Made by a program: the position numbers and the translations under genes. This document shows positions 41,111 through 63,608 of a stretch of 64,000 nt of DNA, piece after piece. Source of the DNA: Caenispirillum bisanense (GTDB lineage Bacteria > Pseudomonadota > Alphaproteobacteria > Rhodospirillales > Rhodospirillaceae). How positions within the stretch are numbered: position 1 is the first letter of the stretch; the number at the start of each line of letters is the position of its first letter. The DNA lies in NCBI GenBank assembly GCA_945906455.1, contig CAMDRB010000001.1, positions 710 through 64,709 on the forward strand, written 5' to 3'. The notes under the pieces were generated by a model. The model saw only the letters and a program-made list of their open reading frames with translations, was not told where the DNA came from and did no database searches.

Positions 41111-41156
41111 TACAGTCTCGGCTGGTTTGCTAGTTTTCTATCCAGGGGTGCTTGCT

Positions 41157-43106
<1,950 letters not shown>

Positions 43107-46883: not shown

Positions 46884-47353
46884 TTCGCGCCTCCGCCGGC
46901 AAAGGTAATCTGAGCCCTGACGGATCCGCCTTCACTCTTCTGGATCGAAGCTCTAGCCACAGAAATTCCGTAGCGTTCCTGGAGGGCGGTTATCCATTTG
47001 TACAACGCCGGCGAACCAACGTCGTCAAGCCACACGTCCAGGTCGTTGTTTTCGTGGGGTTGAAGGCGGGTAATGGCAAGCCCTTGTTCGGATGCCACCA
47101 GGCCGACGGCCGTGCGTGCCTCAACATGCGCCCGCGCGACAGCTCCCGACCGAAGCCCCTCAATTTCGCTCGCGTCGGCTTCAACCTGGGCCAAAAGGGC
47201 GACGGCGTTTTCAAAGTCGGTCTTGGCCCCCAGGCGATAGGCGACCAGCGGCTTCATGCCGAACTGGACGGCGCACAAGACGAGCAGTAGGCCGCCGAGG
47301 CCGACGAGCGCTGCTTTTTCCCGCTGCGTACGTTCATGCCACCACTGCATCAC
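46880..47353 (-). CDS. gspM: Type II secretion system protein M
   Basis: 157 aa, single TM after RTQREKAAL, with 4-nt overlaps on both sides. Confidence 0.7.
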   Translation of the reverse strand: MMQWWHERTQREKAALVGLGGLLLVLCAVQFGMKPLVAYRLGAKTDFENAVALLAQVEADASEIEGLRSGAVARAHVEARTAVGLVASEQGLAITRLQPHENNDLDVWLDDVGSPALYKWITALQERYGISVARASIQKSEGGSVRAQITFAGGGAK

Positions 47354-48582
47354 GGCACCCGCACCACGATATCGGTAACGATGCGGTCACCGTCCTGTCG
47401 CGCACCGCCTTCCTGGACGGTCCCGCCGTTCTTTCTTATGGCAGTGTTAATACGTTCGATGACGTCATAAGAAGGCAGCGACATCGTTACCGAAGTTTCG
47501 CCGCCCTTAGCGTCAAATCTCAACACCTGAATTTCACTACCGTCAGTTTCCGAAACCACAGCAAACAGCATCGTGCTCGTCTGCAAGAATCCGGTCGACC
47601 CGCGGGCCTTGAGCTCCTGCAAATGAGCGCGGATTTGCGCACGCGGGTTTACGACCCGCTTGACGTCCGGGAAAACCCGGCGAAAAACCGCCTCGGTGCG
47701 CGCCGTCGCAAATTCCGCCTGTCGATGCAGACGCATACTGTCGACGACCAGGTAGGTCAGAGCAAGCACCGCCGTTGCGCCCACCAGGATGGCGGTCCGG
47801 CGCCAGTCCCGACCAACGGCGGCCCAATCCCGCCGTGGGGCGTAATCCCCCTGGAGCAGATTGATATGCGCGCCACCACGCACGGCCGCATGGGCCATTT
47901 GCAAAAGGCCAGGGTCGGAGAGCGATTCTAGTTTGGCAATGCCGCGATAAGCCTTCAAAGGCCCTCTCAACAGGGCCTCGGCGTCGCCCGTGATGAGACG
48001 CAGGCTGCGAATATTCTTAAACGAATCACCAAGGACCCAGTCGAGGACAGTGGGTTCGATAGTGAAGGCCGCAGCCCCCGGACCGAGGCGGACCGAAACC
48101 ATGCCGGCACGGCCGAGCACGACAGCCTCATGGGGCGCTGCCGTTACCGCCAAGAAATCGGGCACGAGAATGTCAGCCTTCAGCGCCATGCTCTCAAGTC
48201 GCGCTAGCCATGATCTCATAGTGTCGCGAGATACCGCCAAGATAGCCCGGCCTTCGTTTGCCGATTCTGGCGCCAGAGCAAAATGCATTTCAGCGCTGTC
48301 GACGGCAAGGTCGTCTTCAAGCATGAACGCTGCCGCCTTGCGCAACTGGACTTCAGTCTGGGCCGGCAGCGCTACGGTCCGCGCGAGGACGGATGCTCCG
48401 GATACGACAACCCAAGTTTCGGCTGGCCATGTCGCGGCCGGAGCTTCACCTTCGGCGAATTCTAATTTTCGGCCGGGTTCGATGATTCCCGAGCGCACGA
48501 TGGCAGCAGAGTCTTTACCAAATATACCCCACACCGAAGGCGCATCAGGAGACTCTGCCAAGATGACGATGAGGACTGTCAT
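47350..48582 (-). CDS. gspL: Type II secretion system protein L
   Basis: 410 aa with a cytoplasmic actin-like N-domain, one TM (AILVGATAVLALTYLVV) and a periplasmic C-domain. Its position between gspK and gspM supports the call. Confidence 0.72.
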   Translation of the reverse strand: MTVLIVILAESPDAPSVWGIFGKDSAAIVRSGIIEPGRKLEFAEGEAPAATWPAETWVVVSGASVLARTVALPAQTEVQLRKAAAFMLEDDLAVDSAEMHFALAPESANEGRAILAVSRDTMRSWLARLESMALKADILVPDFLAVTAAPHEAVVLGRAGMVSVRLGPGAAAFTIEPTVLDWVLGDSFKNIRSLRLITGDAEALLRGPLKAYRGIAKLESLSDPGLLQMAHAAVRGGAHINLLQGDYAPRRDWAAVGRDWRRTAILVGATAVLALTYLVVDSMRLHRQAEFATARTEAVFRRVFPDVKRVVNPRAQIRAHLQELKARGSTGFLQTSTMLFAVVSETDGSEIQVLRFDAKGGETSVTMSLPSYDVIERINTAIRKNGGTVQEGGARQDGDRIVTDIVVRVP

Positions 48583-49598
48583 CAGTCGAAGGTCCCGTAT
48601 CTGCGGGCATGGGTCGTGAGACGTCCACCGTCGTCCACTTCAACCAGAGAATTCATGGTGAATTCAGCCTCGTGAAATTGCACCGTGCTTGCCACGTCGA
48701 AATAATGGGTCTTGAGAACGAACTGCCGGCGGGTGGGTTCATCGATCGCTAGCCCCGAAAACGCATCCAGGGAGAAGAATCGATCGGTGCTGGAAAACCC
48801 GTCTAAGGGCCGAGCGGCGATGAGACGCTGCGCTTCGGTGAGTCGCAGCTCAGGCCCAGCCAGCATGACCAAGAGCGCGGCCTGGCTCTCGCGCACGGTA
48901 TTGATGTTGATCCGGCTAAGGTCATTGGTCGGCAAAGCGCAGACGAGAGGCCGTAGCCGCTGATAAATCTCCTCGGTGTAGCCGGAAATGGCGCGCAGTT
49001 CGCTGGGCTCGGCGAGGAGTGTGCCGGCGGTGCGGTAAGGCACTAGACGAGCGCCGTAGTATTCGTCTTCGGCTCCGTAGGCCGCCGATTCCCCGTCGCT
49101 ATCAACCCAATCGACCAAAGACGCCGCCAGCGCCGCGCTCAGCCGCCGGTCGAACTCCAAGGCCGTTAGCAATGCGATATATTGTTCCTGACCGGTAGCC
49201 CGGACGATGGTGAGGCCCGTCGGTCCGCGTTCGGCGACGCTGTTAAGGTTGAAACAAGTTCCCCCGTCCGTGATCCGGCCGGAAATCGAACCGCCGTCAA
49301 TCGCGAACGCGACGCCGTCCTTCGCCCAGGGATCGCGCAATGTCGAACGCGAGGAGCTCACCTTCCAGCTTCGCCAGAGCACCTGACGAGCCATGGCTTC
49401 GGCTCCGAGCGCGTACCATGACATCTGATCGGAGATGCGGATATTGGCAGTTCGCCGAACCGCGAAGCGAATGTCATCGGTAACGGCGATGGCAACCGAG
49501 GACATGACGGTGACCAAAAGCAGGACGATGAGCAAGGCCACGCCTCGCTCATGGTGCGCGCCCCGATAGCCCCTCCCGGACATCCTTTCAAACACCAT
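48582..49598 (-). CDS. gspK: Type II secretion minor pseudopilin K
   Basis: 338 aa. The N-terminal hydrophobic segment RGVALLIVLLLVTVMSSVAIA lacks Glu5, as GspK does. Size and operon position fit. Confidence 0.78.
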   Translation of the reverse strand: MVFERMSGRGYRGAHHERGVALLIVLLLVTVMSSVAIAVTDDIRFAVRRTANIRISDQMSWYALGAEAMARQVLWRSWKVSSSRSTLRDPWAKDGVAFAIDGGSISGRITDGGTCFNLNSVAERGPTGLTIVRATGQEQYIALLTALEFDRRLSAALAASLVDWVDSDGESAAYGAEDEYYGARLVPYRTAGTLLAEPSELRAISGYTEEIYQRLRPLVCALPTNDLSRININTVRESQAALLVMLAGPELRLTEAQRLIAARPLDGFSSTDRFFSLDAFSGLAIDEPTRRQFVLKTHYFDVASTVQFHEAEFTMNSLVEVDDGGRLTTHARRYGTFD

Positions 49599-49610
49599 GA
49601 CCCACCTTCC

Positions 49611-50216
49611 TCAATTCGCAGGCGTAAGAAAAGCTTGGCGAATCTCGCCCAGCCCAGCGACAGTTACAGTAACCGCAATCGCTTTCGGCAGTTCGGCGTT
49701 TTCCGACACCGCACGCCATCTGTCGATCCAATTTCCGGCGGAGAAAAACGAAACCCGCGCACTGCTCACATTCGCAAGGAGTCTGGTGGTTATCGTCGCC
49801 GTACCGGGCGCGGGATCGAGATAGGGACGCGTGCGGCGGAGGAGTTCGGCCCCATCGAGAATGTATTCCACGTATTGTAGCGAGCTGCGCGCTTCCTCGC
49901 CCGCAGGGTTGTTCCAACCCCGGCGGACAAATGACACCAAGACATTCTTGTCCTGTGCCGACGATGTCGCGAAGCTGCTTCGAGATTGTCCGCCATAAGC
50001 GTTGCGCACGGCGCGCGGCGCGAGCTGGCCGAGATCGGCCTTCATCACGGCACGAGCGACCTGGATATCTTGGATGGCCGCTGAAGAGCGGTGGAAGGCC
50101 TCTTTGTTGCGCAGTGTCAGATTGAGAATGCCGACCGAGGCGGCGGTCAGCAGCGAAAAGGCCAGCAATGCCGCCAGCATTTCCACCAAGGTAAACCCGC
50201 GCGCTACGGCCGTCAT
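49611..50216 (-). CDS. gspJ: Type II secretion minor pseudopilin J
   Basis: Prepilin motif ARG|FTLVEMLAALLAF, 201 aa. Confidence 0.8.
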   Translation of the reverse strand: MTAVARGFTLVEMLAALLAFSLLTAASVGILNLTLRNKEAFHRSSAAIQDIQVARAVMKADLGQLAPRAVRNAYGGQSRSSFATSSAQDKNVLVSFVRRGWNNPAGEEARSSLQYVEYILDGAELLRRTRPYLDPAPGTATITTRLLANVSSARVSFFSAGNWIDRWRAVSENAELPKAIAVTVTVAGLGEIRQAFLTPAN

Positions 50217-50614
50217 CGCAAACCCCGAAAGGCGCTAACCGCGATCAAGGCCGACTCTCCCGGCGCGATACGTACCGCGACGTCGACGCGCTTGATATCT
50301 CGATCGCTGGTCGCGCTCACGGCCCGAGACCATACCCAAGCCTGGCCGGCAATTTCGGTTTCACCGTTGGTCTCACCGAGCGGAAGTTCAACCGGCGCGG
50401 CAACGGCCTCAACCAGCAGATTTTCGGCAATAATCTCGGCAAACAAGCGGTCGCGGACAGCGGAAGACAGGCTTGCGCTAACGCCCTGCACATTCAGCAG
50501 CGCGAGCACGGCAATGCTCAGGACGCCTAGTGCGACTAAGACTTCCACCAGGGTAAATCCGCGGTCGCGGCGTTGATCAGGGTTTGTCGAATACGACAAC
50601 TTCGCCTCTTTCAT
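50213..50614 (-). CDS. gspI: Type II secretion minor pseudopilin I
   Basis: Prepilin motif DRG|FTLVEVLVALGVLSIA. The start is uncertain (ATG 50614 or a TTG about 50599 after AAGAGG). Confidence 0.78.
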   Translation of the reverse strand: MKEAKLSYSTNPDQRRDRGFTLVEVLVALGVLSIAVLALLNVQGVSASLSSAVRDRLFAEIIAENLLVEAVAAPVELPLGETNGETEIAGQAWVWSRAVSATSDRDIKRVDVAVRIAPGESALIAVSAFRGLR

Positions 50615-51101
50615 TACTCGAAACAACATATTGATCGGAGCCTTCGGCGAGCGACATAGAGAAAGGTGTGACCACACCCGTTGGATCAAACACCACACTC
50701 GGCATGACGCCCTTCGCTTCGACGCGTGTCGGGGAGCGCAGCCCGGCGTTGGCCGCCCGGTTCATGTCGGCGACGACGCCGGGTCTCCAGGACTTGCGTT
50801 CAAAGGCCCGCTCGCCTGACCATTCCCGCCACTTACCAGCGTCAAGATAGTAAAAGGCGTAGCCCTCGGACGTGACCAGTAGCCCGGTAGATACGCCTTT
50901 GATAATGCTCTCTTGGGCAAGAAGCTTGGCGCGCGCCGCGAGCGCACGCGCGTCATTGCGCAGCGAACCGGTTTTCCCATGCAGGGTGAAGACAGCCACG
51001 CTGGTGAGAAGGCCAATGATCACGAGCACGACCAACGTCTCAACCAGCGTGAAGCCGCGCGGCTTCCGCTCTCGGCGCTTAATTCCAGTTGCCGATGTCA
51101 C
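50577..51101 (-). CDS. gspH: Type II secretion minor pseudopilin H
   Basis: Prepilin motif PRG|FTLVETLVVLVIIGLL. The GTG start at 51101 overlaps the end of gspG. The longer ORF to 51443 is rejected because it runs through gspG. Confidence 0.75.
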   Translation of the reverse strand: MTSATGIKRRERKPRGFTLVETLVVLVIIGLLTSVAVFTLHGKTGSLRNDARALAARAKLLAQESIIKGVSTGLLVTSEGYAFYYLDAGKWREWSGERAFERKSWRPGVVADMNRAANAGLRSPTRVEAKGVMPSVVFDPTGVVTPFSMSLAEGSDQYVVSSNERGEVVVFDKP

Positions 51102-51540
51102 CGTCGAGCCCTTCTCCGCCAAGTTTGCGATTGGCGCCAAGTGAATAGATATCGAACGGCCCCCGCTCGCCGGGAAAAACATACTGATAGGGTACTCCCC
51201 AAGGATCGCTGGGCAACCGTCGGATATAGGCGTCTTTGCGGTAGCGGTCAGGCTGCGCGAGTTCATCGGGGGCCCTGACCAACGCGTCAAGCCCTTGTTC
51301 CATGGTTGGGTAAGCAAGAGTGTCGAGCCGGTACATTTCAATCGCCTGGGAAATGAGCATGACATCGGCCTTGGCCTTCTCAACCATGGCCTTATCCTGG
51401 CTCGGCAGGACATTGAGCACGACGAAGGTCGAGAGCAGGCCAATGATTACGATCACGACCATCAGTTCGACTAGCGTAAAACCCGCCTCGGCGTGGCGCT
51501 TAGCTGTAAGCCGGAACGGCATTTTCAATAGTGCGGTCAT
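51079..51540 (-). CDS. gspG: Type II secretion major pseudopilin G
   Basis: AEAG|FTLVELMVVIVIIGLL followed by DKAMVEKAKADV...IEMYRLD...YP, the highly conserved GspG core. Confidence 0.92.
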   Translation of the reverse strand: MTALLKMPFRLTAKRHAEAGFTLVELMVVIVIIGLLSTFVVLNVLPSQDKAMVEKAKADVMLISQAIEMYRLDTLAYPTMEQGLDALVRAPDELAQPDRYRKDAYIRRLPSDPWGVPYQYVFPGERGPFDIYSLGANRKLGGEGLDGDIGNWN

Positions 51541-51557
51541 CGGGAGGTGTTCCAGAT

Positions 51558-52787
51558 CTACAAGAGGGCAAGCGAATTGAGTTGCAGGATCGGCATGAGG
51601 ATGGCGAGCATGATCAAGGCGACCACGCCGCCCATGGCCACCACGATCAATGGCTCCAGCAACCCGATGGCGATTGACGTAAAGGACTCGAATTCGCTTT
51701 CGAGATGATCGGCAGCCTTGGTCAACATGACATCAAGCTTTCCGGTATTTTCCCCGACTGCGGACATATAGATGACCATGGGGGGAAAGAGATTCGCCCG
51801 GCGCAGGCTGTTGGAGAGGCTGGTCCCCTCCTTGATCGAGTTTATTACGCGTCCAACCGCTTCGATCAGGACGAGATTCGACAGCGTGGTTTTCGCCGCG
51901 GCGAGACCCTCGATCAGGGGCGAACCGCTCGCGATCAAGGTGCTGAGGGTGCGGGCCAACCGCGCGGCATAAAGCCCCCGCAAAAGCTTTCCGAGTACCG
52001 GCAAGTCAAGCACAAGACGGTCCACGCGGCGGCGGAAGGATTCACGCTTGAGGGCGTGCCCGAATCCAATAAGGCCCAGAATTATGATGAATAGTCCGGC
52101 GAGGCCGAAGCGGCTCAATCCATCGGAAAGCGCAATTAGCATGCGCGTTAAGAAAGGGAGTTCCTGGCCCATCCCGTCAAATTGCGACACGACCTTCGGG
52201 ACAACGAACACCATCAATATCGCGACAACGACCACGGCTACGGCTGACAAGACCAACGGATAGATCAGCGCCGCAGTCACTTTCGCACGCAACCGCGCGG
52301 TTTTCTCCAAATGGTCCGCGAGTCGATCCAAGACCGACCCGAGGTTGCCGGAGATCTCGCCGGCGCCTATCAGGGCGCGGTAAAGCGGCGAAAAGACGCG
52401 CCCATGCTGTGCCATGGCGTCCGCCAGACGAAAGCCTTCCAAGACACCCGCCCGCACCGCCAAAAGCGTGGCTCGCATTGCCTTATTGTCGGATTGCAGG
52501 GCAATGGTCTGCAGGGACTCTTCCAACGGCGCGGCGGCGCTCACCATCGTTGCGAGTTGGCGCGTCATGACCATCACGGCAGACGGCCCCGGCGGCCGGC
52601 GGTGCAGCCACGACCTAAACGAGAGGGGGATTCCGCCTTTGCGATCCTCGGATACCGAGGACAGTTTGATCGGCATCAGGCGGCTTTCCCGAAGCTGGCG
52701 ACGGGCGAGCCGGGCCGTATCGGCCGACACGACGCCGGTCCTGACGCCGCCTCTGTGGTCCAATGCTTCGTATTCAAATGCCGGCAT
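51558..52787 (-). CDS. gspF: Type II secretion inner-membrane platform protein F
   Basis: 409 aa, a duplicated GspF domain, three TM segments, MPAFEYEALD at the N-terminus. Confidence 0.92.
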   Translation of the reverse strand: MPAFEYEALDHRGGVRTGVVSADTARLARRQLRESRLMPIKLSSVSEDRKGGIPLSFRSWLHRRPPGPSAVMVMTRQLATMVSAAAPLEESLQTIALQSDNKAMRATLLAVRAGVLEGFRLADAMAQHGRVFSPLYRALIGAGEISGNLGSVLDRLADHLEKTARLRAKVTAALIYPLVLSAVAVVVVAILMVFVVPKVVSQFDGMGQELPFLTRMLIALSDGLSRFGLAGLFIIILGLIGFGHALKRESFRRRVDRLVLDLPVLGKLLRGLYAARLARTLSTLIASGSPLIEGLAAAKTTLSNLVLIEAVGRVINSIKEGTSLSNSLRRANLFPPMVIYMSAVGENTGKLDVMLTKAADHLESEFESFTSIAIGLLEPLIVVAMGGVVALIMLAILMPILQLNSLALL

Positions 52788-52789
52788 GA

Positions 52790-54280
52790 CTAAGAATCCT
52801 GCCTAACGACACGGAAGACTTCCTCGACCGACGTCATGCCGTTCATCACGTGACGGAAGCCGCACTGCGCCAAAGTTTCCGTATCGCGGAATGCAACGGC
52901 GGTCAGTTCCTGTTCCGAGGCATTGTCATGAATTTTGGCGCGCAGGTCGTCGTGGACCGTGACGACTTCGTAAATGCCAAGGCGCCCGCGATAACCTGCG
53001 TTCTTGCACGCGGGGCAGCCGGTCGGCTTCCATAGGGTCACCGGGCCAGGACCTTCGAGGCCCAGCGCCGCGCATTCGGCCTGGCTGGCTGGAGCCGGCT
53101 TCTTACACGTCTCGCATAACCGGCGAACGAGTCGCTGCGCCACTACGGCCTTGATTGTGGACGCCAGGAGAAACGACTCAATTCCCATGTCACGTAGGCG
53201 CGTAACCGCGCTGATCGCGCTATTGGTGTGGACAGTCGAGAGTACAAGATGACCGGTCAAACTGCCTTGGACGGCAATCTGCGCGGTTTCGGCGTCGCGG
53301 ATTTCTCCGACCATGACGACGTCCGGATCCTGGCGAAGAATTGCGCGCAAGCCCGCGGCAAAGGTCATACCCACGCGAGGGTTGACCTGGGTCTGCCCAA
53401 CGCCGTCGAGGGCGTATTCCACGGGATCCTCGACCGTCAGGATATTTGTGGTCTTGTCGTTGAGCATGGATAGCGCCGCATACAGCGTCGTAGTCTTGCC
53501 CGAACCCGTCGGGCCGGTGGCAAGGACGATCCCGTTGGGTTCCGCGAGGGCCCTGCGGAATGCCGCCAAAGAACGGGGCTCCATGCCCAGTTGATCTAAC
53601 TCCATATGACCTTGCGTCTTGTCCAAGAGACGCATGACGACACGTTCGCCGTGTTGCGACGGTAATGTCGAAACGCGCACGTCCAGGGACTTCCCGCCGA
53701 TCGTCAGGGAGAGGCGCCCGTCTTGTGGCAGCCGCTTCTCGGCGATGTCGAGCCGCGCCATGACCTTGATGCGCGATACAAGAAGCGGCGCAATTCGACC
53801 GGCGAGACTGATAACTTCCTGCAATACACCGTCGATGCGCAGACGCACCGAGAGTTTATTTTCATAGGGTTCCACATGGATATCGGAGGCGCGGACCTTG
53901 ACGGCCTCGGCGATCAGGCCGTTGATCAGGCGGATGACCGGAGCTTCATCGGCAGCCTCGAGAAGATCAGCGACCTTCGGTATGCCCTCGATGAGGTGGC
54001 TGAGCGAATGATCACCGCTGAATTGATCGGCGATCTTGTCGGCCTCGATGCCGTCCAAGGCATAACTTTCCGCCAAGTGTCGTTCGAACACCGCCGGCGC
54101 GAGTGTTTCCAGCATGATCGGTACGCCCACAGCCCGGCGGGCCTCGAGAATTGCCTCAGCGCGCGGCCTTGCCAGAACACCCAGGCGCGCGATTTGACCG
54201 CGATTCAATACGATAATCCCGTGTTCCCGCGCGAAGGTGTAACTCAACGCCGATTCTACGCGATCAGGCAGGGCGTTCAT
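52790..54280 (-). CDS. gspE: Type II secretion ATPase E
   Basis: Walker A GPTGSGKTT, an Asp box, Walker B and a tetracysteine motif (CETC...CPAC). Confidence 0.95.
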   Translation of the reverse strand: MNALPDRVESALSYTFAREHGIIVLNRGQIARLGVLARPRAEAILEARRAVGVPIMLETLAPAVFERHLAESYALDGIEADKIADQFSGDHSLSHLIEGIPKVADLLEAADEAPVIRLINGLIAEAVKVRASDIHVEPYENKLSVRLRIDGVLQEVISLAGRIAPLLVSRIKVMARLDIAEKRLPQDGRLSLTIGGKSLDVRVSTLPSQHGERVVMRLLDKTQGHMELDQLGMEPRSLAAFRRALAEPNGIVLATGPTGSGKTTTLYAALSMLNDKTTNILTVEDPVEYALDGVGQTQVNPRVGMTFAAGLRAILRQDPDVVMVGEIRDAETAQIAVQGSLTGHLVLSTVHTNSAISAVTRLRDMGIESFLLASTIKAVVAQRLVRRLCETCKKPAPASQAECAALGLEGPGPVTLWKPTGCPACKNAGYRGRLGIYEVVTVHDDLRAKIHDNASEQELTAVAFRDTETLAQCGFRHVMNGMTSVEEVFRVVRQDS

Positions 54281-56325
54281 TTGGGTGCCCCACGCCCAGC
54301 CGCTTCGCCGCCGGGGGCCGGAATTGGATCGGCGCCGAGGATCTCGTTCGCAAATTCACCAAGCCGTGCGTTGCCATCGCCGCTGCTCCGCATCTGCTCG
54401 GACTGCATATAGTTAAATTTTCGCTCGGTGACCGCGCGAAGATCGCGCGCGTTGTTGATGATCGTCGGCCGCAGGAACACCATCAAATTCGTCCGCCGGC
54501 GCGATTTTGATTCGTTCTGAAAAAGCCTGCCCAATACTGGAATGTCGCCGAGCAACGGAACCTTGTCCAAAGAGATCTGTTCGTCGTCCTCGATCAAGCC
54601 GCCGAGAACGACGATTTGGCCGTTATCCGCCATGACGGTGGTCTCGATCTCGCGCTTATTGGTGACAAGCTCGGAGGATTGAGCGCTGACCGGGCCTAGA
54701 ACGCTGGAGACTTCCTGGCGGATAGAAAGCTTGATTGATTCGCCCTCATTGATTTGAGGTTTTACTTCGAGCTTGATGCCAACGTCCTTGCGCTCGATGG
54801 TGCGAAATGGATTGGTGTTGTTGCTGCCCAAGGCTTCGCCGGTCGTTATCGGTATTTCCCGGCCGACAAGAATTGAAGCCGCTTGATTGTCCATTGTCAT
54901 GATCGACGGCGTCGACAGGACGTTGGATCCGATATCGCGCTTCAGGGCATTGAGAATAACGCCGAAGATTGTTCCATTGCTTGACTGTCCGGCAAAACCG
55001 CCGAGGAAGCCGGCGGTACCAAGCAATGAGTCAACGGCCAGGCCTTGCAGCGCCTTTAGGGCATCGGTGTCTTCACCTTGAGTTTCGCGGTCAAGAACCA
55101 CCGCGCCTGTGGCCGCCAGTATACTCGGTGAAATATCGCCGGGAAAATTCGTCGCGGAGAAAGGAACTTGACTGCCCCTGCCGCCGGACAGGATGTACTG
55201 CACACCAAGCTGCTTTGCCGCCGAGTCCGAGACCTCGACAATGATCGCCTCGACTAGGACCTGAAGCCTCGGTATGTCGATTTGGCGAATAACCTCACTC
55301 AATTCCTGCTGAACGTCAGGCGAGGCGTTTATCACCAGGGCATTGGTTCCGCTGTGAACGGCGATGGTTGCCCGGCCCGGCTGGCCGCCAGCGCCATCCT
55401 TGGGCGGACTGCCTTTGGTCAAAGCGCTAATGCGCTCGAGTAACGGCAGCAGCTCTTCCGCCGCCACATACTTGAGGTGGACGACTTTCGTGTCCGCCGT
55501 CGATGCGCCCTGTGAGTCCAGTTTGTCGATGACCGGCTCAAGCATCTTGAGGAGCTCGGGCGGGCCGCGCAGGACAATACTATTGCTTCCCTCTAGCGGC
55601 ACGACGGTGAAATTGCTAAGGGCGTTATTGGCATCGCCTTGCGCCTTGGCAAGGTCGGAAACGACGCGCGCCATCTGTTCCGCCGAAGTATTTCGGAGCG
55701 TGATAATGCTGACGGTCGAGGGGTCACGGTCGAACGTGGCGACGACTTGGCGGATACGCCGGACGTTCGACGCATAGTCCACGACGATGACCGCATTGGT
55801 TCCGCGCGTCGTGACCACGCGACCCTGACGGTTGACCAGCGGCTGGATCATCTGCAGCGCGGTATTGACGTCGACGAAGCGCAGGTGAATCACTTCGGTG
55901 ATCAATTGATCGCCGCTGGCCGGCTGATCAAGCGGCGCTGCATCCTGCGCCGCGGACTCCTCAGGCACCACCCGGTAAGCACCACCGGAGGTCGGCAGCG
56001 CCGTGAAACCATTGGCGCGTAACGTCGAAAGGAAAAGGTCAAAGACATCATCGGGACTTAAGGCTGTCTGAGATATGACCGTGACCTTGCCTTGCACGCG
56101 GGGGTCGACGACGAAAGTCTTGCCGGTGAGTATCGAAACATCACCGATAAATGCTCGGATGTCGGCCTCACGCAGATTCAAGACCTGGTTTGGGCTTTGA
56201 CCTTGGCTCGGGTTTTGGGTGGCGCTTTGCGCCATAGCCCCACCCTCCCGCTCGCAAAAAATAGCGAGAAAGAGCCCCAGGGACGCGGCCAGAACCCGGC
56301 CACTCTGCTTGATATATTTATTCAT
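54277..56325 (-). CDS. gspD: Type II secretion secretin D
   Basis: 682 aa with a signal peptide, N0-N3 domains and a C-terminal secretin domain (VPLLGDIPVLGRLF). Confidence 0.93.
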   Translation of the reverse strand: MNKYIKQSGRVLAASLGLFLAIFCEREGGAMAQSATQNPSQGQSPNQVLNLREADIRAFIGDVSILTGKTFVVDPRVQGKVTVISQTALSPDDVFDLFLSTLRANGFTALPTSGGAYRVVPEESAAQDAAPLDQPASGDQLITEVIHLRFVDVNTALQMIQPLVNRQGRVVTTRGTNAVIVVDYASNVRRIRQVVATFDRDPSTVSIITLRNTSAEQMARVVSDLAKAQGDANNALSNFTVVPLEGSNSIVLRGPPELLKMLEPVIDKLDSQGASTADTKVVHLKYVAAEELLPLLERISALTKGSPPKDGAGGQPGRATIAVHSGTNALVINASPDVQQELSEVIRQIDIPRLQVLVEAIIVEVSDSAAKQLGVQYILSGGRGSQVPFSATNFPGDISPSILAATGAVVLDRETQGEDTDALKALQGLAVDSLLGTAGFLGGFAGQSSNGTIFGVILNALKRDIGSNVLSTPSIMTMDNQAASILVGREIPITTGEALGSNNTNPFRTIERKDVGIKLEVKPQINEGESIKLSIRQEVSSVLGPVSAQSSELVTNKREIETTVMADNGQIVVLGGLIEDDEQISLDKVPLLGDIPVLGRLFQNESKSRRRTNLMVFLRPTIINNARDLRAVTERKFNYMQSEQMRSSGDGNARLGEFANEILGADPIPAPGGEAAGRGAPK

Positions 56326-56327
56326 CG

Positions 56328-57278
56328 TTACCGATCAACCGCGATTCTGTGAACTTTTCGTTGCCCTTTGCGCTCGATATCGAGCGTGAGGCGTTCGGCA
56401 TCGCCCAAGCTCGGGACAAGGGCCGTCAGGCTTGCGATATCGCTGACGGGCATGCCATTTACGGCCAGCAACACGTCGCCGGACACCAGGCCTGCCTGTT
56501 CAAGCAGAGTTGGCGTGGCGGACTGCAACACCACACCAGCAGCGCCCGTATCACCGGTCTGTGCTGTGAAGCGCAGGTTGCTGAACAGAGCCTTCGCCCC
56601 GACGTCTATCCGTCGCCACGGTTCAGCCGCTTCGGTCGCGGCCGAAAGCATGGCCGGGGATGATCTGTCCGTCGCTGGTCCTACGCCCGGCATGTCCGCC
56701 GGCGAAACCCCGGCAACCACCTTTTCCTTATCGAGACTGAGACTTTCCGTGACGCCATTGCGCCGAATGGTCACACGACCGGGTAAGACCTGCTCGAGCC
56801 GCACGCCGGGCATGATGTTCTGGCCGGCGAAGTAGACGTTTTGGGTATTGTCGACACCGGCGATTATCGCGCTGCCGCCGGCGCCGCCTTGGCCCACGCG
56901 GATTCCGAACAGCTGCAGGCTGAGCATCGTTTCAGGTGCATGTGCGGCGGCCCCGCCCGAGGTCGCGGCAATCGCGCGGTGGAAGGGATCAAATGTTGTC
57001 AGCGCGCCGCTCCGCCAGGTCGAGCGCGATGCGGCCGGCGCCACCGCCTTGCCGACGGTCGCGAGAGCCTCGGACGATTCCGGCGATCCGATCAGAGTCC
57101 AGAGCAGCTGCGCAGCAAAGGCGGAAAGGCCGACGACGGCCACACCCTCGATCAATCCCCGCCACCGGGCCGCAGGCTGGGCGCGCAGCAGCCCGAGGCT
57201 CTGTGAGCCCCACCGCTCCATTCGCCGCGCCGTAGGCGCCAGCTTGAAATCGGGGAAACTCACCTCAGACATGCCCAT
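56328..57278 (-). CDS. gspC: Type II secretion protein C (TM + HR domain + PDZ)
   Basis: 316 aa with an N-terminal TM (VAVVGLSAFAAQLLWTL) and a C-terminal PDZ-like GLVSGDVLLAVNGMPV. It lies directly upstream of gspD. Confidence 0.78.
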   Translation of the reverse strand: MGMSEVSFPDFKLAPTARRMERWGSQSLGLLRAQPAARWRGLIEGVAVVGLSAFAAQLLWTLIGSPESSEALATVGKAVAPAASRSTWRSGALTTFDPFHRAIAATSGGAAAHAPETMLSLQLFGIRVGQGGAGGSAIIAGVDNTQNVYFAGQNIMPGVRLEQVLPGRVTIRRNGVTESLSLDKEKVVAGVSPADMPGVGPATDRSSPAMLSAATEAAEPWRRIDVGAKALFSNLRFTAQTGDTGAAGVVLQSATPTLLEQAGLVSGDVLLAVNGMPVSDIASLTALVPSLGDAERLTLDIERKGQRKVHRIAVDR

Positions 57279-57296: not shown

Positions 57297-59891
57297 CTAG
57301 ACGCCAAATGAGAAGGACTGGCCAAGTTTGTAGGTGTCAACATTGACGGTCGTGCCTTCGTAGGCCTGCAGCGCCCGATACTTAGCGCCCGAAATATTTT
57401 CAGCTTTAAAGCTAACCTCGTATTCGCTTTCAAACACCGAGACCGTTCGGTTGTAGGTAAAATCCACACTTAAGGGCGGCCGCTCAAAAATTTCGGGCAA
57501 CGTCTGCGGCGCGGATGCGCGGATGCGCTTGCTCGAATAGTTCAGCAAAAGGGTCGCCGCCGACCCCGCCTCGGCATCCTCGTAGCCGACCTGAAAATTG
57601 GCGAGATACCGTGAGTGGCCTTGCAGCGCCCGGCCGTCCCGGATGATGAACGACGCCGGCAGGACTGTGCCGTTCTGACGGATAACAGTATCACCTGGCT
57701 TGATGTCGAGCTTGGATTCGCTCCAGGTGAAGTTTGTGGCCGCGAAGAAATTCTTGGTCGACAACCATTCTTGCTGCCACGGCGATTCCAAAACATATTT
57801 AAATTCGGCCTCGACGCCGTAGAGCTCGGCGCGCGGCACGTTCTGAAAAGTGGTCTGCTGGTTGTCGCCGGCTTCGTTGATGGTTTCTTCGACCGGGCTC
57901 GAAAGTTTCTTATAGAAACCGCCCAGGGTCACGTACTGTTCGTCGGCGAAATACCATTCCCACCGGCCGTCAATGTTAGTGATTCTGGAGTTGGTCAGGT
58001 TTGGATTGCCGACGAATTGCCGATCGGTATCGACGTCGATAAAGTCGGCCGGCGCCAATTCGCGGAACTGCGGGCGCCCGATGGTCTTCGATCCACCGAC
58101 GCGAACCTGCATGTTTTCAGCAAAGTTCCAGGTAATGGTCGCCGCCGGGAGCCAATAGCTCTCGTTAATCTCGGTTTCTACTCTTGTATTCGACGTGTAG
58201 AAGTCAAACGTATCGACCATCTGAGCGCCGGACTCGTATCGGCCGCCCAAGGCAGCGCGAACATAGTCGCCGACCTGCGCGTCCATCCCGACGTAGGCTC
58301 CATGCACCTGAAGGGCACCGGTGTAGGCTGGGGGCGCGGAACTGCCCGTGACCTCGGTGAGGACAAAACGGCCGGAATTGATGTTCTGATCGGAGAAAAT
58401 ATAGTCAATGCGCCGTGAAAGAAGCGCCGGCGGCAAGGGCCCCCCGGTCGGCAATAGACGATAGTCGCGTTGCTCGGAATCACGCGCGTTGTCGGTGTAG
58501 AGATAGCCCGCCTTCAAGACCATTTCGCGCTCGTTGAAGGTCGTTACTTTCGTCAAGTCGAGCGCGCCGGAGAAGAGCGTGTCATCGATCTTGCTGAATC
58601 GCGTCAGGTTTCGGCCTTGCGAGAAATCATAAGTGAGCTGGCCGGAGCCAAAATCGCGATACTGGGCAAAACGCTCATACGGAGCATCGCGCGTCGCGGT
58701 TGAGTACGAGCCCTTCCAATTGACGGTGAAGTCATCCTCGAGGTGATGCAGGCCGTCGATCTGATTGGTCCACATCTGGCGCTCGAACCACTCGGTATAG
58801 TCCCGGCGCACGATTGTGCCGAAATTCGCCGACAAGCCCTGCAGCGTACGCGCCTCCTTGGAGGTGTTGCGAATCAGGAGGCTGGTGAATTTTATCTCGT
58901 TGTTATCCCAGTCGGCGCCGAGGCCGAGCAAGGCATGCCAGCGAATGTCATTCTGCGTGCTGACAAAGTTGAAGTTGTCGGCAACCACCAGCACCCTGGC
59001 GCCTGCCGCGTTCGATCCAAACCGACCGTCCTGCTGCTGGCCGCGCTTGGTCCGCCAATTGTTGTCGTAGCCGGCAGAGACAAGAACGCCGTAACTGGTG
59101 TCGCCGCGCAGGAGCCGGTCGCCCATGGTCACGTCGAGCCCGAAATTTCCCGGGGTCGTGCCTTCGAAGACTACCCACAGATCCGAGTTGACCAGACTTC
59201 GGCCGATCGTCTGGAGCTCCGTATCCGAGAAATTCAAGGTGTTAATGCGCTTCTTGGAATCGATGGCCGCCTGCAGCGGATCCGGAATCGCGCGCGTGCC
59301 GCTGTCGAATCCTGCCCAATCGTAAGCTCCGCCCTCGTATAGCAGCCCGTTTTTCCAGGTAGTTTCGGTATTTCCGCTACCCGAGAGACTGACTTCAACG
59401 AACGACTCATCCGGGACGGTCTTGGTCTTGATTTCGAGCAAGCCTCCACCGAATTCACCGGAATATTGCGGCGAGTAGGTCTTCTGCGCCGACGCGCTCG
59501 CCAGAACCGCCGTGGGAAAAAGGTCGAGTGGGACAACGCGGCGGAGCGGTTCGGGGCTCGGCAGGGGAAGGCCATTGAGCATGGCGTTGGAGTAGCGTTC
59601 GCCCAGGCCCCGGATATAGATGAATTTTCCGCCGACCAGGCTCAAGCCCGTGACCCTGCGCAAAGATAACGCGATATTGCTATCGCCCTGCTTCTCGAGG
59701 TCCGCGGCGCTGATGAAGCTTGATATTTCGGATGTCTCGCGTTTGGGCTCGGGGATAAAGGCGCCACGAACGACAATTTCATCAACGGCATCGGCGGCCG
59801 GCGCTTGTTGGCCAGCTATCACGCTCGTGGACCAGCTCAGTGCGGTCGACGACAGCAGCGCCCCAGCCAGGATTGAACCAAAACGTTTCAT
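57297..59891 (-). CDS. TonB-dependent outer-membrane receptor (C-terminus truncated by in-frame TAG)
   Basis: Signal peptide, TonB box DEIVVRGAF, plug domain (IYIRGLGERYSNAMLNG) and a long beta-barrel. It ends ...SFSFGV-TAG, and the next codons read RRF-TAA. The ATG at 59891 follows an AGAGGTG RBS. Confidence 0.88.
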   Translation of the reverse strand: MKRFGSILAGALLSSTALSWSTSVIAGQQAPAADAVDEIVVRGAFIPEPKRETSEISSFISAADLEKQGDSNIALSLRRVTGLSLVGGKFIYIRGLGERYSNAMLNGLPLPSPEPLRRVVPLDLFPTAVLASASAQKTYSPQYSGEFGGGLLEIKTKTVPDESFVEVSLSGSGNTETTWKNGLLYEGGAYDWAGFDSGTRAIPDPLQAAIDSKKRINTLNFSDTELQTIGRSLVNSDLWVVFEGTTPGNFGLDVTMGDRLLRGDTSYGVLVSAGYDNNWRTKRGQQQDGRFGSNAAGARVLVVADNFNFVSTQNDIRWHALLGLGADWDNNEIKFTSLLIRNTSKEARTLQGLSANFGTIVRRDYTEWFERQMWTNQIDGLHHLEDDFTVNWKGSYSTATRDAPYERFAQYRDFGSGQLTYDFSQGRNLTRFSKIDDTLFSGALDLTKVTTFNEREMVLKAGYLYTDNARDSEQRDYRLLPTGGPLPPALLSRRIDYIFSDQNINSGRFVLTEVTGSSAPPAYTGALQVHGAYVGMDAQVGDYVRAALGGRYESGAQMVDTFDFYTSNTRVETEINESYWLPAATITWNFAENMQVRVGGSKTIGRPQFRELAPADFIDVDTDRQFVGNPNLTNSRITNIDGRWEWYFADEQYVTLGGFYKKLSSPVEETINEAGDNQQTTFQNVPRAELYGVEAEFKYVLESPWQQEWLSTKNFFAATNFTWSESKLDIKPGDTVIRQNGTVLPASFIIRDGRALQGHSRYLANFQVGYEDAEAGSAATLLLNYSSKRIRASAPQTLPEIFERPPLSVDFTYNRTVSVFESEYEVSFKAENISGAKYRALQAYEGTTVNVDTYKLGQSFSFGV

Positions 59892-59996
59892 TGCAGTCAC
59901 CTCTTTACTGATCCCCCGAGAGGGCTTGGACGCATTGTCCGGATGAGACCGCCCGGCGGCGGCTCCCTTTTGCCGCCACCGGGTTTTGAGTCTCGG

Positions 59997-62708
59997 TTAG
60001 CAGGCCGGCGTAGGTCCGCCCAAGCCGCATGACCAGCCCTGCCACCACGTGTCGGAGGCACCGCTGACTGCGCCGATATAGTTCGCCGCCGAGAAGAACG
60101 TACCCAGCGTCGTCGGGTTCACCGCGGCGCGCGCCGTTTCGGTCGGACCGTTGATGAACGTGCTGGTGAGGGTATCCGGCGTCGCCGTGGAATTATTCGT
60201 ACCGGCATTGAAAACCGCCGCCACCTGTACGTCCGTCACGTTGGTATCGACGGTGAAGGCAATCGGGCAGTCCAAGAGGACCGAGTTGTGGACAAGGCCC
60301 GATAACAAAGTAGAGGCGTCGTCGATATCCAGGCACTGCGGCGACCCAATAACCACACCATTCACAAACGTCCCGCCGACTCCGACCCGCTCAAGAATTG
60401 CCGCCGTGTGGGGCGCATTGGGTTGCCCGACAAGAGTGAAATTCGAGAACTTCGGCGCCGTCAGCGGCAATTTCGCATGGTCGGTCGGCAGATTGTCGAG
60501 TTCGAGCATATGGTCGCCTTCATCGGCGGCCTGCACCACGAGCGCGAACTGCATGTTGCCGTTCCAGCCCGCGGACCAGTCGAGCGAGTCGTCGCTGGCG
60601 CCGGTGACGACGATGTGTTTGAGATTGACCGTGCCACCGAACCATTCGATGCCGTCGTCGGAGCTGTTGTGGCTTTGGAGGTAGTCGATCTCGGTGCCCG
60701 CACCGACGCCGGCAATGGTGAGGTTCTGGAGTTCGTTGTTAGGTGTGATTTCGATGCCGCCGTGCTTGATCTGCATATATTTCAAGCGGCCGCTGCTGTC
60801 GTTGGCTATTGCGCCGCCGAAGAAGGCGGTCGTGCCTTCTACCTGAGCTTCGCAGTTGGCGAGCCCGCCGGGTCCCGGGCAGGAGTTGATCGGAGCGCGA
60901 CCGAGCACTACGAGGCCGCCCCACAAGCCGCGGGCGGTTGCTGCCGCGGTGTTGTTGACGTCTTGAAGTGCGGTAAACGTCACCGGCGCCGTCGGCGTGC
61001 CGTTGGCGAAGATCTTCGAACCCCGGTTCACGACCATGAAATCCGAAGTTCCGCTGCCGAAGATCGTAACGCCGGCATCGATCGTCAGATTGGATGGATC
61101 GCCGCCGGTCTTGGTGCCGTCACCGCCGACATCGATGCCGATGTCGACGCGGCCGCCCAGCTGATAGAGATTTCCGGCCGTGAGGTTTAGATCGGCCGTG
61201 TAGACCCCGCGCACTTCACAACGATTCTGGCCGAGTAGGGTGCCGATGTTGGTGGTCCCGGTCGGGCAGGTCGGCGGCGCGAACAGGCTGACCGTCCAAC
61301 CGAAGGCCCAATTGTTGCTGGCGGTTTCGGTCGACGAAAAGGCCCCGACATAGGTGGTATTGTCGAAGAAGCCGCTCAAGGTCGAAGCGTTGAATGGCGT
61401 CCGCGACAATTCCTGCGGGCCCGGGAAGTATTGACCGGTAAGCGAGGTGGCGCCGACGACGTTGTTCGTGCCGCCGGTGAAGACCGTCGCCACTTGCGCA
61501 TCGGTGACGTTAGTATCGACGGTGTAGGTCACCGGGCAATCCAAGGTGACCGACCGGTAGGTAAGAGTCGTCAGCAATGTCGACGCGTCGTCGATGTCGA
61601 GACATTGCGGCGAGCCTTTGACGATTCCGTTCACCATCGTTCCACCAACGCCGACACGCTGCAGAATGCCTGCCGTGTGCGGCGCATTGGGTTGTCCGAT
61701 AAACGTGAAGTTTGCGACTGTCGGCGCCGTCAATGGCAATTTGGCGTTATCCGTCGGCAGGTTGTCGGCCTCGACCATGTGGTCGCCTTCGTCGGTGGCT
61801 TGAACCACCAGGGCGTATTGGATGCGGCCGACCCATCCGGAGGCCCAGTCCAGCGAGTCGTCGCTGGCGCCGGTGATAACGACGTGCTTGAGGTTAACCG
61901 TGCCGCCGAACCACTCGATTCCGTCATCGGAGCTGTTGTGACTCTGGATGTAGTCGATGGTGGTGCCGGCGCCGACGCCGGCGAGCGTCAGGTTTTGAAG
62001 TTCGTTATTGGGGGTGATTTCGATGCCGCCGTGCTTGATCTGAACATAGCGCAGGGTGCCCGAGCTATCGTTCGGTAGCGCGCCGCCAAAGAAGGCCGTG
62101 GTGCCTTCGACCTGGGCTTCGCAGTTCGCAAGGCCGCCCGGTCCAGGGCAGGAGTTGATGGGAGCGCGGCCCAACATCACAAGTCCACCCCACTGGCTGC
62201 GGGACGTGGCAGTTGCCTGGCCGAGAATGTCTTGGCGGCTGGTGAAGACGATCGGCAAGGTCGCTGTTCCGTCGGCGATGATGCGCGAGCCGCGATTGAC
62301 GACAATGAAGTCCGAAGTTCCCGCGCCGAAAACGCGCACGCCGGGCTGGACGGTCAGGGTCACGGACTGACCGCCGGTCTTGGTGCCATCACCACCGACG
62401 TCGGCGCCGACATCGATGCGGCCATTAAGTTGGTAAATGACGCCGCTGGTCAGTGTCAGGTTAGAAAGGAGCGTTCCCGAGAGGGCGCAGGTGGTATTGT
62501 TGCCGACCGATGTCACCGCAGTCGTGCCGGCCGGACATGTTCCGGTCTGGCCGCCGGTACCGCCCGTGCCGCCGCCGCCGGTACCGCCGCCGCCGGTGTC
62601 AACTTGGCTGGTCTCACCTGGAGAAGTTACGCTGGCATCACTGCACGCCGCGAGCGCCAGGGCGGCGCAGGCAGCCACGATGAATTTCTTTAGCGGCTTG
62701 TTGGTCAT
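59997..62708 (-). CDS. 903-aa lipoprotein made of two tandem ~420-aa modules (predicted beta-helix-like), function unknown
   Basis: Lipobox LALAAC|S followed by a Gly/Thr linker (GGGGTGGGGTGGTGG). Module 1 maps to about 61272-62540 and module 2 to about 60000-61271. They share long identical blocks: GRAPINSCPGPGGLANCEAQVEGTTAFFGGA, IKHGGIEITPNNELQNLT, QSHNSSDDGIEWFGGTVNLKH. The ATG at 62708 follows GAGGGG. Confidence 0.8.
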   Translation of the reverse strand: MTNKPLKKFIVAACAALALAACSDASVTSPGETSQVDTGGGGTGGGGTGGTGGQTGTCPAGTTAVTSVGNNTTCALSGTLLSNLTLTSGVIYQLNGRIDVGADVGGDGTKTGGQSVTLTVQPGVRVFGAGTSDFIVVNRGSRIIADGTATLPIVFTSRQDILGQATATSRSQWGGLVMLGRAPINSCPGPGGLANCEAQVEGTTAFFGGALPNDSSGTLRYVQIKHGGIEITPNNELQNLTLAGVGAGTTIDYIQSHNSSDDGIEWFGGTVNLKHVVITGASDDSLDWASGWVGRIQYALVVQATDEGDHMVEADNLPTDNAKLPLTAPTVANFTFIGQPNAPHTAGILQRVGVGGTMVNGIVKGSPQCLDIDDASTLLTTLTYRSVTLDCPVTYTVDTNVTDAQVATVFTGGTNNVVGATSLTGQYFPGPQELSRTPFNASTLSGFFDNTTYVGAFSSTETASNNWAFGWTVSLFAPPTCPTGTTNIGTLLGQNRCEVRGVYTADLNLTAGNLYQLGGRVDIGIDVGGDGTKTGGDPSNLTIDAGVTIFGSGTSDFMVVNRGSKIFANGTPTAPVTFTALQDVNNTAAATARGLWGGLVVLGRAPINSCPGPGGLANCEAQVEGTTAFFGGAIANDSSGRLKYMQIKHGGIEITPNNELQNLTIAGVGAGTEIDYLQSHNSSDDGIEWFGGTVNLKHIVVTGASDDSLDWSAGWNGNMQFALVVQAADEGDHMLELDNLPTDHAKLPLTAPKFSNFTLVGQPNAPHTAAILERVGVGGTFVNGVVIGSPQCLDIDDASTLLSGLVHNSVLLDCPIAFTVDTNVTDVQVAAVFNAGTNNSTATPDTLTSTFINGPTETARAAVNPTTLGTFFSAANYIGAVSGASDTWWQGWSCGLGGPTPAC

Positions 62709-63150
62709 GATACCCCTCACAGATTACGAACACACATCCCACCGCAGTGCAGCATCGGTTCAATGCGGCGGGGTGGAGGGGGACGTATACTGAATGTTCA
62801 GAGACTCATCCGTGTCAGCCACGTGACGAATAGATGACAATCCGGCCCGATCTTCGCCACGCGCGGCCTCTCGACCATGGGCTTTGGGGCGGATAAGCTC
62901 TGTTTTCGAATCATCGACCTCGGCAGCGAGGAACGCGGCGATGACTTTGCTTGCGGGATCTCATGCGGGACGGTCAGGCAACCGCCGTGCGTCACGGGGC
63001 CAGAGGCACCCCACAAAATTCCCAAGGTAACGCGCTGCTGATTCGTCAGAAAATGTCACTAAACATTCATATTTCTTACATAATTATTTCATTGTTACTT
63101 TGACTTGGAAGGATCATTATTTCTCCAGTCAGTTTTACGTGGAGGACGGA

Positions 63151-63537: not shown

Positions 63538-63608
63538 TCCCAATCTCTCGTGAATATTGACGGCGAGAACGCGCATCGTTTGCCCATTTGATTTTTGGGA
63601 GATTGTCG

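Follow-up and report, generated by a model that had tools for sequence, protein, structure and literature searches.

The lipoprotein gene and its family

We analyzed a stretch of 64,000 nucleotides from Caenispirillum bisanense (contig CAMDRB010000001.1 of assembly GCA_945906455.1, hereafter the window), in which a gene on the reverse strand encodes a lipoprotein of 903 amino acids. Sequence comparison identifies the protein as two units of the Caulobacter crescentus surface lipoprotein ElpS in tandem. Its place as an ElpS-family surface lipoprotein, genetically coupled to a specific TonB-dependent receptor (TBDR) and to a type II secretion system (T2SS), is shown or strongly supported by the analyses below. 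The parts of the gene and of its product are as follows.

59997..62708, reverse strand: coding sequence of the 903-residue double-module ElpS-family lipoprotein, an open reading frame (ORF) whose product is identical to protein P0001 (PF28492, Beta_helix_4)
62706-62708 and 59997-59999, reverse strand: start codon ATG and stop codon TAA of the lipoprotein gene
62713..62718, reverse strand: putative ribosome-binding site GAGGGG, 4 nt 5' of the ATG, from sequence
62643..62708, reverse strand: predicted lipoprotein signal peptide (residues 1-21) and lipidated Cys22, with lipobox LAAC and Ser at +2
62610..62642, reverse strand: post-lipobox peptide SDASVTSPGET (residues 23-33), containing the family motif [IV]-[AS]-S-P-G-[EA]
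62538..62609, reverse strand: Gly/Thr-rich tether (residues 34-57), predicted to be disordered from model confidence and family comparison
61269..62537, reverse strand: module 1 (residues 58-480), predicted right-handed beta-helix with Cys 58/74, 187/196 and 369/391 and the acidic positions D261 D262 E265 / D283 D284 D287 / E313
60000..61268, reverse strand: module 2 (residues 481-903), predicted right-handed beta-helix with Cys 481/497, 610/619, 792/814 and 894/903
Acidic ladder of module 2: D684 D685 E688 / D706 D707 D710 / E736, from conserved residues

The initial annotation, made from the sequence alone, had described an uncharacterised lipoprotein held on a Gly/Thr tether. The lipid anchor and the tether are borne out by what we find. 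The N-terminus reads MTNKPLKKFIVAACAALALAAC followed by Ser, with the lipobox L-A-A-C ending in Cys22, although the match to LPAM_1 in the Pfam scan is weak. Residues 23-52 are predicted to be disordered in the AlphaFold2 model, with a predicted local distance difference test score (pLDDT) below 50, and the mature protein is acidic (about 90 kDa, pI 4.4). The layout of this region is kept in the family, running from the lipid Cys through [IV]-[AS]-SPG-[EA] and a Gly/Pro/Thr tether to C-P-x-G, and such low-complexity tethers are seen throughout ElpS-family loci.

The description as uncharacterised, in contrast, is wrong at the level of the family. A precomputed tag for PF28492 (PF28492.1, Beta_helix_4) is attached to P0001, which is 100% identical to the window protein, and to all 120 listed homologues; our local Pfam scan gave no match to the family because PF28492 is newer than the Pfam copy that was scanned. 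The family is large, with 7,434 representatives of 50%-identity clusters at E <= 1e-3 and 4,109 at E <= 1e-30, and its members contain from one to nine matched stretches. The smallest have a single module (~450-500 aa), the largest reach 2,000-2,800 aa with up to nine matched stretches, and three-module forms (~1,290 aa) are characteristic of Alteromonas and Halieaceae. The two-module architecture is thus a variant within a known family, in which it has hundreds of counterparts, and does not define a new type of system.

Caulobacter members of the family were reached through an Asticcacaulis query, while a Brevundimonas query gave only close Brevundimonas relatives. Module 1 is 46% identical to P0521 (C. 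vibrioides KSB90040.1) over 438 aligned columns (E = 6e-114), and module 2 is 47% identical to it end to end (E = 2e-121). P0437 from C. endophyticus, which shares a 90%-identity cluster with P0521, is encoded directly upstream of a TBDR and gspC-K. Because each module aligns end to end with a Caulobacter protein in the elpS position, the window protein is taken to be a tandem double of ElpS (cc0170), a protein that has been partly characterised by experiment. The initial annotation had held that a confident match to a well-characterised family would speak against it. The family that the protein does match is one characterised in part.

ElpS is a palmitoylated outer-membrane protein of ~50 kDa that is exposed on the surface (Le Blastier 2010, PMC2996285). 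Its production is specific to phosphate starvation, and depletion of iron does not induce it (PMC2996285). Its release from the cell is sensitive to protease inhibitors and requires the T2SS, whereas its arrival at the surface does not, and the released form is cut at residue 38, 18 residues past the lipid Cys (PMC2996285). Fjoh_0546 is among the exoproteins of Flavobacterium johnsoniae most strongly induced by phosphate depletion (PMC8115612). ElpS and BT4056 have been described as surface lipoproteins of the pectin-lyase superfamily associated with TonB-dependent transporters (TBDTs), a proximity that is conserved in 621 genera (preprint 10.1101/2023.03.17.533168). In literature searches for ElpS-like proteins, Beta_helix_4 and XAC0692 no ligand, activity or structure was found, and a search for PF28492 found nothing.

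Structure and history of the two modules

The two modules, of about 423 aa each, are similar along their length. Residues 1-485 and 486-903 share 283 of 422 aligned positions (67% identity, 582 bits, E = 0 by BLASTP), including identical runs of 32, 21, 19 and 15 residues (LGRAPINSCPGPGGLANCEAQVEGTTAFFGGA, QSHNSSDDGIEWFGGTVNLKH, QIKHGGIEITPNNELQNLT and GSPQCLDIDDASTLL, respectively). The nucleotide identities of these runs are 0.84, 0.86, 0.88 and 0.78, in agreement with the earlier estimates of identical stretches of 20-30 residues in a tandem duplication and of about 85 percent nucleotide identity in the best blocks. The 14 Cys residues that follow the lipid Cys form seven sequence-local pairs, and 12 of the 14 are invariant in 60 homologues. 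Three pairs in each module agree with the six Cys that had been placed at equivalent positions; the C-terminal pair 894/903 of module 2 is extra and had been overlooked. Single-module relatives carry this C-terminal pair, which module 1 has lost, and one Cys serves both as the last of module 1 and as the first of module 2.

The fold was predicted with AlphaFold2. From a 60-sequence alignment the full protein is modelled as two all-beta domains (pLDDT 91.1, predicted TM-score (pTM) 0.65), and one module modelled alone reaches pLDDT 90.7 and pTM 0.92. When the full and single-module models were compared with the Protein Data Bank (PDB) by Foldseek, only right-handed parallel beta-helix proteins were matched: alginate lyases of polysaccharide lyase family 6 (PL6), pectate lyases, glycoside hydrolase family 87 (GH87), tailspikes and, weakly, Ag43 and PfbA. 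All of these matches score poorly: the best E is 5e-4 with the full protein and 2.6e-3 with one module, at ~10% identity and a TM-score <= 0.40. The right-handed beta-helix that had been guessed from strand patterns is thus supported by confident models and by the fold of every match, and in the models the protein has the right-handed parallel beta-helix that defines the pectin-lyase-like superfamily (IPR011050). The structure prediction and Foldseek search that had been proposed at that stage settled the fold class and gave no transferable function, because the matches are generic to the fold. At the sequence level, the module profile had 0 matches among PDB sequences, and a search of the PDB with the protein returned only Gly-linker noise in single-chain variable fragment (scFv) constructs.

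Each module has 15 conserved acidic positions and 7 basic ones. The conserved acids cluster in HNSSDDGIE-FGG and in TG-SDDS-D plus the Glu that follows, on three successive coils. The fold class is common to these modules and to the Ca2+-dependent polyanion-binding lyases found by Foldseek. Because the modules are acidic, an anionic ligand would need a bridging metal, by analogy with the Ca2+-dependent beta-helix lyases.

These observations also bear on the possibility that the protein is a surface-anchored lyase or hydrolase, akin to carbohydrate-active enzymes (CAZymes), that cuts an acidic glycan and passes oligosaccharides to the receptor as a source of carbon. The best structural matches (PL6 alginate lyases, pectate lyases, GH87 and tailspike depolymerases) and the resemblance of the acidic ladder to the Ca2+ sites of pectate lyases are what such an enzyme would lead one to expect, as is a receptor nearest to the Xanthomonas/Caulobacter subfamily, which contains sugar transporters. 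However, the structural matches are fold-generic, and Pfam and NCBIfam scans of the protein gave no match to a lyase or hydrolase family (PL1, PL6, PL9, GH28, GH87), nor did searches against solved structures. The genes that recur beside the family are phoR/phoB, gsp, ppx and exbB, not genes for sugar catabolism or CAZymes, and the reported induction of ElpS and Fjoh_0546 is specific to phosphate limitation. We therefore regard an enzyme of this kind as improbable. The glycan or pectin role suggested in the initial annotation finds no support, since the regulatory and contextual evidence all points towards phosphorus acquisition.

The history of the duplication was read from the degenerate sites. 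Of the 165 four-fold degenerate sites compared between the modules, 88 are different; full saturation would give ~65%. Synonymous sites are thus near saturation and the duplication is ancient, as had been supposed. Even within the identical run of 32 residues, 12 of 19 four-fold sites differ, which rules out recent gene conversion as the source of the identical blocks in this gene. Because four-fold sites differ within them, these blocks are held by purifying selection.

Comparison with other family members adds a second process. In 57 of 59 other two-module proteins, module 1 is most like module 1 and module 2 most like module 2, and it is the N-terminal edge and the C-terminal part of a module that carry this positional signal. 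Within the core (module residues 46-345), the mean identity between the two modules of one protein is 0.76, compared with 0.48 for orthologous cores from different clades. In a neighbour-joining tree of the cores, where those of module 1 and module 2 group as sisters, the smallest clade that holds both modules of one protein comprises only 2-24 tips. An old duplication followed by purifying selection alone is therefore an incomplete account, since core identity within proteins exceeds that between cross-clade orthologues. The view that the duplication is maintained by selection is thus half of the account, since the cores have also been homogenised repeatedly. Read most simply, the sequences record a single ancient duplication, after which the cores were homogenised again and again in separate lineages (concerted evolution). 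In the window lineage, the last homogenisation would on the same reading be older than its divergence from orthologues with a present identity of 76-80%. The repeated homogenisation suggests that both modules must retain the same specificity. The concerted evolution of the cores is a new but secondary observation.

Genomic context and predicted phosphate regulation

Downstream of the lipoprotein gene the window contains the following features.

59945..59994, reverse strand: predicted GC-rich stem-loop without a T-run, right after the lipoprotein stop codon (-46.5 kcal/mol, z = -3.8, RNA folding)
57297..59900, reverse strand: partner TonB-dependent receptor with plug and beta-barrel domains (PF07715, PF00593), likely ATG at 59889-59891
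46155..57278, reverse strand: complete T2SS block gspC-D-E-F-(G-H)-I-J-K-L-M-N (Pfam T2SSC, Secretin, T2SSE, T2SSF, N_methyl pseudopilins, T2SSI, J, K, L, M and N)

The TBDR gene lies 96 nt downstream of the lipoprotein gene, and the order of the genes, all on the reverse strand, is lipoprotein, TBDR, gspC to gspN. The same order, cc0170 (elpS), cc0171 (TBDR) and gspC to gspN, is found in Caulobacter crescentus (PMC2996285). Genes of the elpS family have been reported beside T2SS clusters in Caulobacter, Hyphomonas and Sphingopyxis and in the xcs cluster of Xanthomonas, which has an ElpS homologue (PMC7777525).

We surveyed 80 loci by tblastn and 81 by ORF clustering, from Alpha- and Gammaproteobacteria and some Bacteroidota. 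An orthologous TBDR adjoins the lipoprotein gene in 76 of the 80 loci (75 of 81 by clustering), and the partnership with the adjacent receptor that had been proposed for this gene is in this comparative sense upheld. Genes gspC-F directly follow the pair in 35 of ~80 loci by tblastn and gsp genes do so in 29-32 by clustering. The protein had also been put forward as the cargo of the T2SS. The linkage to gsp genes, in ~30-35 of ~80 loci, speaks for a connection with the T2SS, but in Caulobacter the T2SS is needed for the release of ElpS and not for its arrival at the surface. It is thus doubtful that even ElpS, the founding protein, is a T2SS substrate.

The same survey bears on whether the protein could be a beta-helix surface adhesin whose link to the receptor is coincidental. 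The Joint Genome Institute labels several homologues 'trimeric autotransporter adhesin', and Ag43 and PfbA are among the weak Foldseek matches. Such a role is nevertheless very improbable: adjacency at the frequency found in the tblastn survey is no coincidence, ElpS is released to the medium (PMC2996285), and the protein is lipid anchored, with no YadA-like anchor, coiled-coil stalk or autotransporter barrel in the Pfam scan and a model that consists of two beta-helices and a Cys-bonded tail.

The peptide next to the lipid Cys varies with the context of the locus. S29, P30 and G31 are without exception in the 60-sequence alignment, and the motif [IV]-[AS]-S-P-G-[EA] was found in 45 of 81 lipoprotein ORFs, including essentially every T2SS-linked one. 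Gammaproteobacterial loci adjacent to phoR have CGGDININ in place of the SPG-type peptide. The SPG peptide is therefore a candidate signal for surface sorting or shedding, with the caveat that its correlation with the T2SS is confounded by phylogeny. By analogy with ElpS, the Gly/Thr tether is the probable site of proteolytic release.

The stem-loop after the lipoprotein gene is a recurrent feature (z < -2 in 37 of 57 loci, compared with 2 of 75 control windows within coding sequence). Its probable function is to attenuate or uncouple read-through towards the receptor gene or to stabilise the 3' end of the mRNA, and its presence is in keeping with the reported independent regulation of elpS and cc0171.

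Among the 81 loci, the commonest neighbours other than Gsp proteins are PhoR (17) and an OmpR-type regulator (phoB, 16), and both lie immediately upstream of the pair in Rheinheimera, Alteromonas, SAR86 and Steroidobacteraceae. Other recurring neighbours are GspO (14 loci), a 2-oxoglutarate (2OG)-Fe(II) oxygenase (12), ExbB/DUF3450 (6) and Ppx (5). Clustering of the neighbours in these loci revealed no conserved phosphatase gene and no recurring genes for sugar catabolism or CAZymes.

Upstream of the lipoprotein gene are two putative promoter elements.

62812..62840, reverse strand: triple Pho-box-like element, with TTGTCAT at 62834-62840, TCGTCAC at 62823-62829 and CTGACAC at 62812-62818
62785..62789, reverse strand: -10-like TATAC, ~22 nt downstream of the third heptamer, from the promoter alignment

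The heptamers (TTGTCAT-ctat-TCGTCAC-gtgg-CTGACAC) are phased at 11 bp and lie 105-132 nt upstream of the ATG. Matches to YTGTCAY-N4-YTGTCAY occur six times in the window, where 2.1 are expected, and two of them, which overlap, are at the lipoprotein promoter. When the promoter was aligned with those of five orthologues (64-80% protein identity), the Pho-box block and TATA(C/A) were the sole conserved parts; (A/T)TATA(C/A) is kept in five of the six promoters, and that of P0003 has GTAAGA there. Across the family, 29 of 78 upstream regions of homologues (37%) contain a Pho-box score of at least 11/14, compared with 57 of 2000 random 300-nt windows (2.9%). A scan upstream of the lipoprotein gene for consensus sigma-70 promoters found no -35/-10 pair, as expected for an activator-dependent promoter, and the element is best read as a PhoB-dependent promoter that would lack a -35 element. 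In Caulobacter the PhoB regulon includes the T2SS (PMC11208175). A Pho-type promoter for the lipoprotein gene is thus strongly supported by motif and comparative evidence.

This evidence fits equally well with the role first suggested for ElpS, in which the protein would be an accessory that stabilises or activates some other, secreted phosphatase. Overexpression of ElpS raised the activity towards p-nitrophenyl phosphate (pNPP) in culture supernatants, while refolded or immunoprecipitated ElpS was itself inactive (PMC2996285). However, deletion of elpS left extracellular phosphatase activity the same as before (PMC2996285), the conserved neighbours include no phosphatase gene, and a phosphatase accessory leaves unexplained the near-universal adjacency to a TBDR across Alpha- and Gammaproteobacteria and Bacteroidota. 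We consider this explanation unlikely, although less so than either the glycan-cutting enzyme or the adhesin.

Several further observations concern the neighbourhood of the family. The oxygenase gene (PF13640) lies within 0.1-3 kb of the pair in the 12 loci that have it (L025, L026, L031, L038, L039, L042, L046, L059, L064, L075, L077 and L078). One homologue, P0487 (637 aa; locus L084, 4338-6251), has a weak match to the PstS-like domain PBP_like_2 N-terminal to its Beta_helix_4 module; its gene neighbours encode PHO4, PhoU_div and an ABC ATPase, and a TBDR comes next. In the window, two paralogous genes for small secreted tetratricopeptide repeat (TPR) proteins of 145 and 130 aa (63100-63537 and 63588-63980, both on the forward strand) diverge from the lipoprotein promoter. 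The close orthologous contigs L082, L083 and L085-L088 keep one or two of these genes at that position, and distant loci do not. About 30 kb from the ElpS-like gene is a further locus of phosphorus metabolism, with ppk1 (polyphosphate kinase 1, 1200 bits; 26981-29185, forward strand) and then a ppx-like exopolyphosphatase gene (29243-30757, forward strand). Beyond the T2SS block the genes are ordinary housekeeping ones, encoding a MIP-family channel, dxs and a polyprenyl synthetase (44586-45494, 41127-43106 and 40130-41110, all on the forward strand).

A proposed role and its parallels in known systems

Taken together, we think it likely that the protein is a surface-tethered capture protein of the Pho regulon that serves the adjacent TonB-dependent transporter and is shed by T2SS-dependent proteolysis of its tether. 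Within this proposal, the capture of a phosphorus-containing ligand, its hand-off to the receptor and the shedding of the modules are what we infer. Under phosphate starvation, PhoB would bind the triple Pho box and switch on transcription. The protein would then be exported by the Sec pathway, lipidated on Cys22, sorted to the outer membrane and, as shown for Caulobacter ElpS, displayed on the surface, here on a flexible tether of ~35 residues. The invariant Asp/Glu ladder is most likely a site for Ca2+ or another metal, through which it may capture a phosphorus ligand that porins cannot pass because of its size; phytate, polyphosphate, and fragments of nucleic acids or other polyanionic organophosphates are candidates. 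The ligand would be passed to the co-encoded transporter, with the lipoprotein acting like a lid or like a capture protein on a tether. As for ElpS, the tether may be cut by a protease that the adjacent T2SS exports, so that the freed modules would widen the radius of capture. The tandem duplication would provide twice the binding units per anchor.

Some observations weigh against this proposal. The homology to ElpS was measured on a Caulobacter protein in the elpS position, including a C. vibrioides entry, which stands in for CC_0170 of strain CB15. The evidence for Pho regulation in the window is a motif match and its conservation in the promoter alignment, not a measurement of expression, and the acidic ladder was located from conserved sequence positions and not from model coordinates. 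The NCBIfam model nearest to the TBDR is TIGR01782 (TonB-Xanth-Caul), below its cutoff, which would place the receptor closest to a subfamily better known for carbohydrate uptake. For Caulobacter, cc0171 has been reported as constitutive while elpS is induced, so that the two are not strictly co-regulated, and no phosphate phenotype was reported for a deletion of cc0171 (PMC2996285). The absence of an effect of the elpS deletion on phosphatase activity counts here as well, and in the literature no family member has been shown to have a ligand, metal or binding activity.

Little is understood of how bacteria take up phosphorus compounds that are too large to pass through porins, and pairs of an ElpS-family lipoprotein and a TBDT are among the outer-membrane proteins most strongly induced by phosphate starvation in Caulobacter and Flavobacterium. 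We show here that the family is very large, that its link to Pho boxes and phoBR extends across phyla, and that it has one- to many-module forms whose cores evolve in concert. As a broader and more tentative idea, which we hold to be possible but short of probable, ElpS-type lipoproteins and their dedicated TBDTs may form a very widespread, unrecognised route across the outer membrane by which condensed or organic phosphorus in complex with metal (such as phytate, polyphosphate and polyanionic phosphoesters) is taken up, as the phosphorus counterpart of SusCD and TbpAB. In such a route, the number of modules (1 to 9) would tune avidity, gene conversion would keep the cores identical, and the SPG peptide would mark the protein for sorting to the surface or for shedding linked to the T2SS. 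Experiments could start from the acidic ladder with its invariant residues, from the tether, from the SPG peptide and from the equivalence of the two modules.

The closest known counterpart is ElpS itself (CC_0170 / CCNA_00169), which the window protein resembles over whole modules (46-47% identity) and in the order of lipoprotein, TBDR and gspC to gspN genes. The lipobox, SPG peptide, Gly-rich tether, Cys pattern and Trp-rich C-terminal tail are also alike. ElpS differs in having one module (~486 aa, ~50 kDa), whereas the window protein has two (903 aa, 90 kDa when mature). In the latter the C-terminal Cys pair has been lost from module 1, and the module cores show concerted evolution. Pho-type regulation has been shown for ElpS and is at the level of motifs here.

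BT4056 of Bacteroides thetaiotaomicron and Fjoh_0546 of Flavobacterium johnsoniae, putative lids of non-SusC TBDTs, are distant homologues of ElpS according to the literature only. They are likewise TBDT-adjacent lipoproteins of the pectin-lyase-like superfamily, and Fjoh_0546 is induced by phosphate depletion and abundant in the exoproteome. Both are from Bacteroidota, however, where the lipoprotein is encoded downstream of the TBDT and has no linkage to a T2SS. An AlphaFold-Multimer model of BT4055 with BT4056 has few confident contacts (10.1101/2023.03.17.533168).

The pairs SusD/SusC and TbpB/TbpA follow the same logic as proposed here, in which a surface lipoprotein captures a substrate for a co-encoded TBDT. 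SusD is alpha-helical (TPR-like) and TbpB has a beta-barrel and handle architecture, and neither is homologous to the sheddable beta-helix on a long tether of the window protein. The Hxc T2SS and LapA of Pseudomonas aeruginosa are an analogous case of a T2SS linked to phosphate starvation beside a phosphate-scavenging exoprotein (PMC7777525). LapA differs in that it is a genuine T2SS substrate with alkaline phosphatase activity, lacks a beta-helix and has no TBDR as its partner. The Ca2+-dependent beta-helix lyases of families PL1, PL6 and PL9, such as AlyGC (5gkd) and Pel9A (1ru4), share the fold class and acids stacked on successive coils, and AlyGC of PL6 has two tandem beta-helix domains like the window protein. 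This likeness is one of fold, with no profile match and no conserved lyase catalytic residues identifiable in the window protein.

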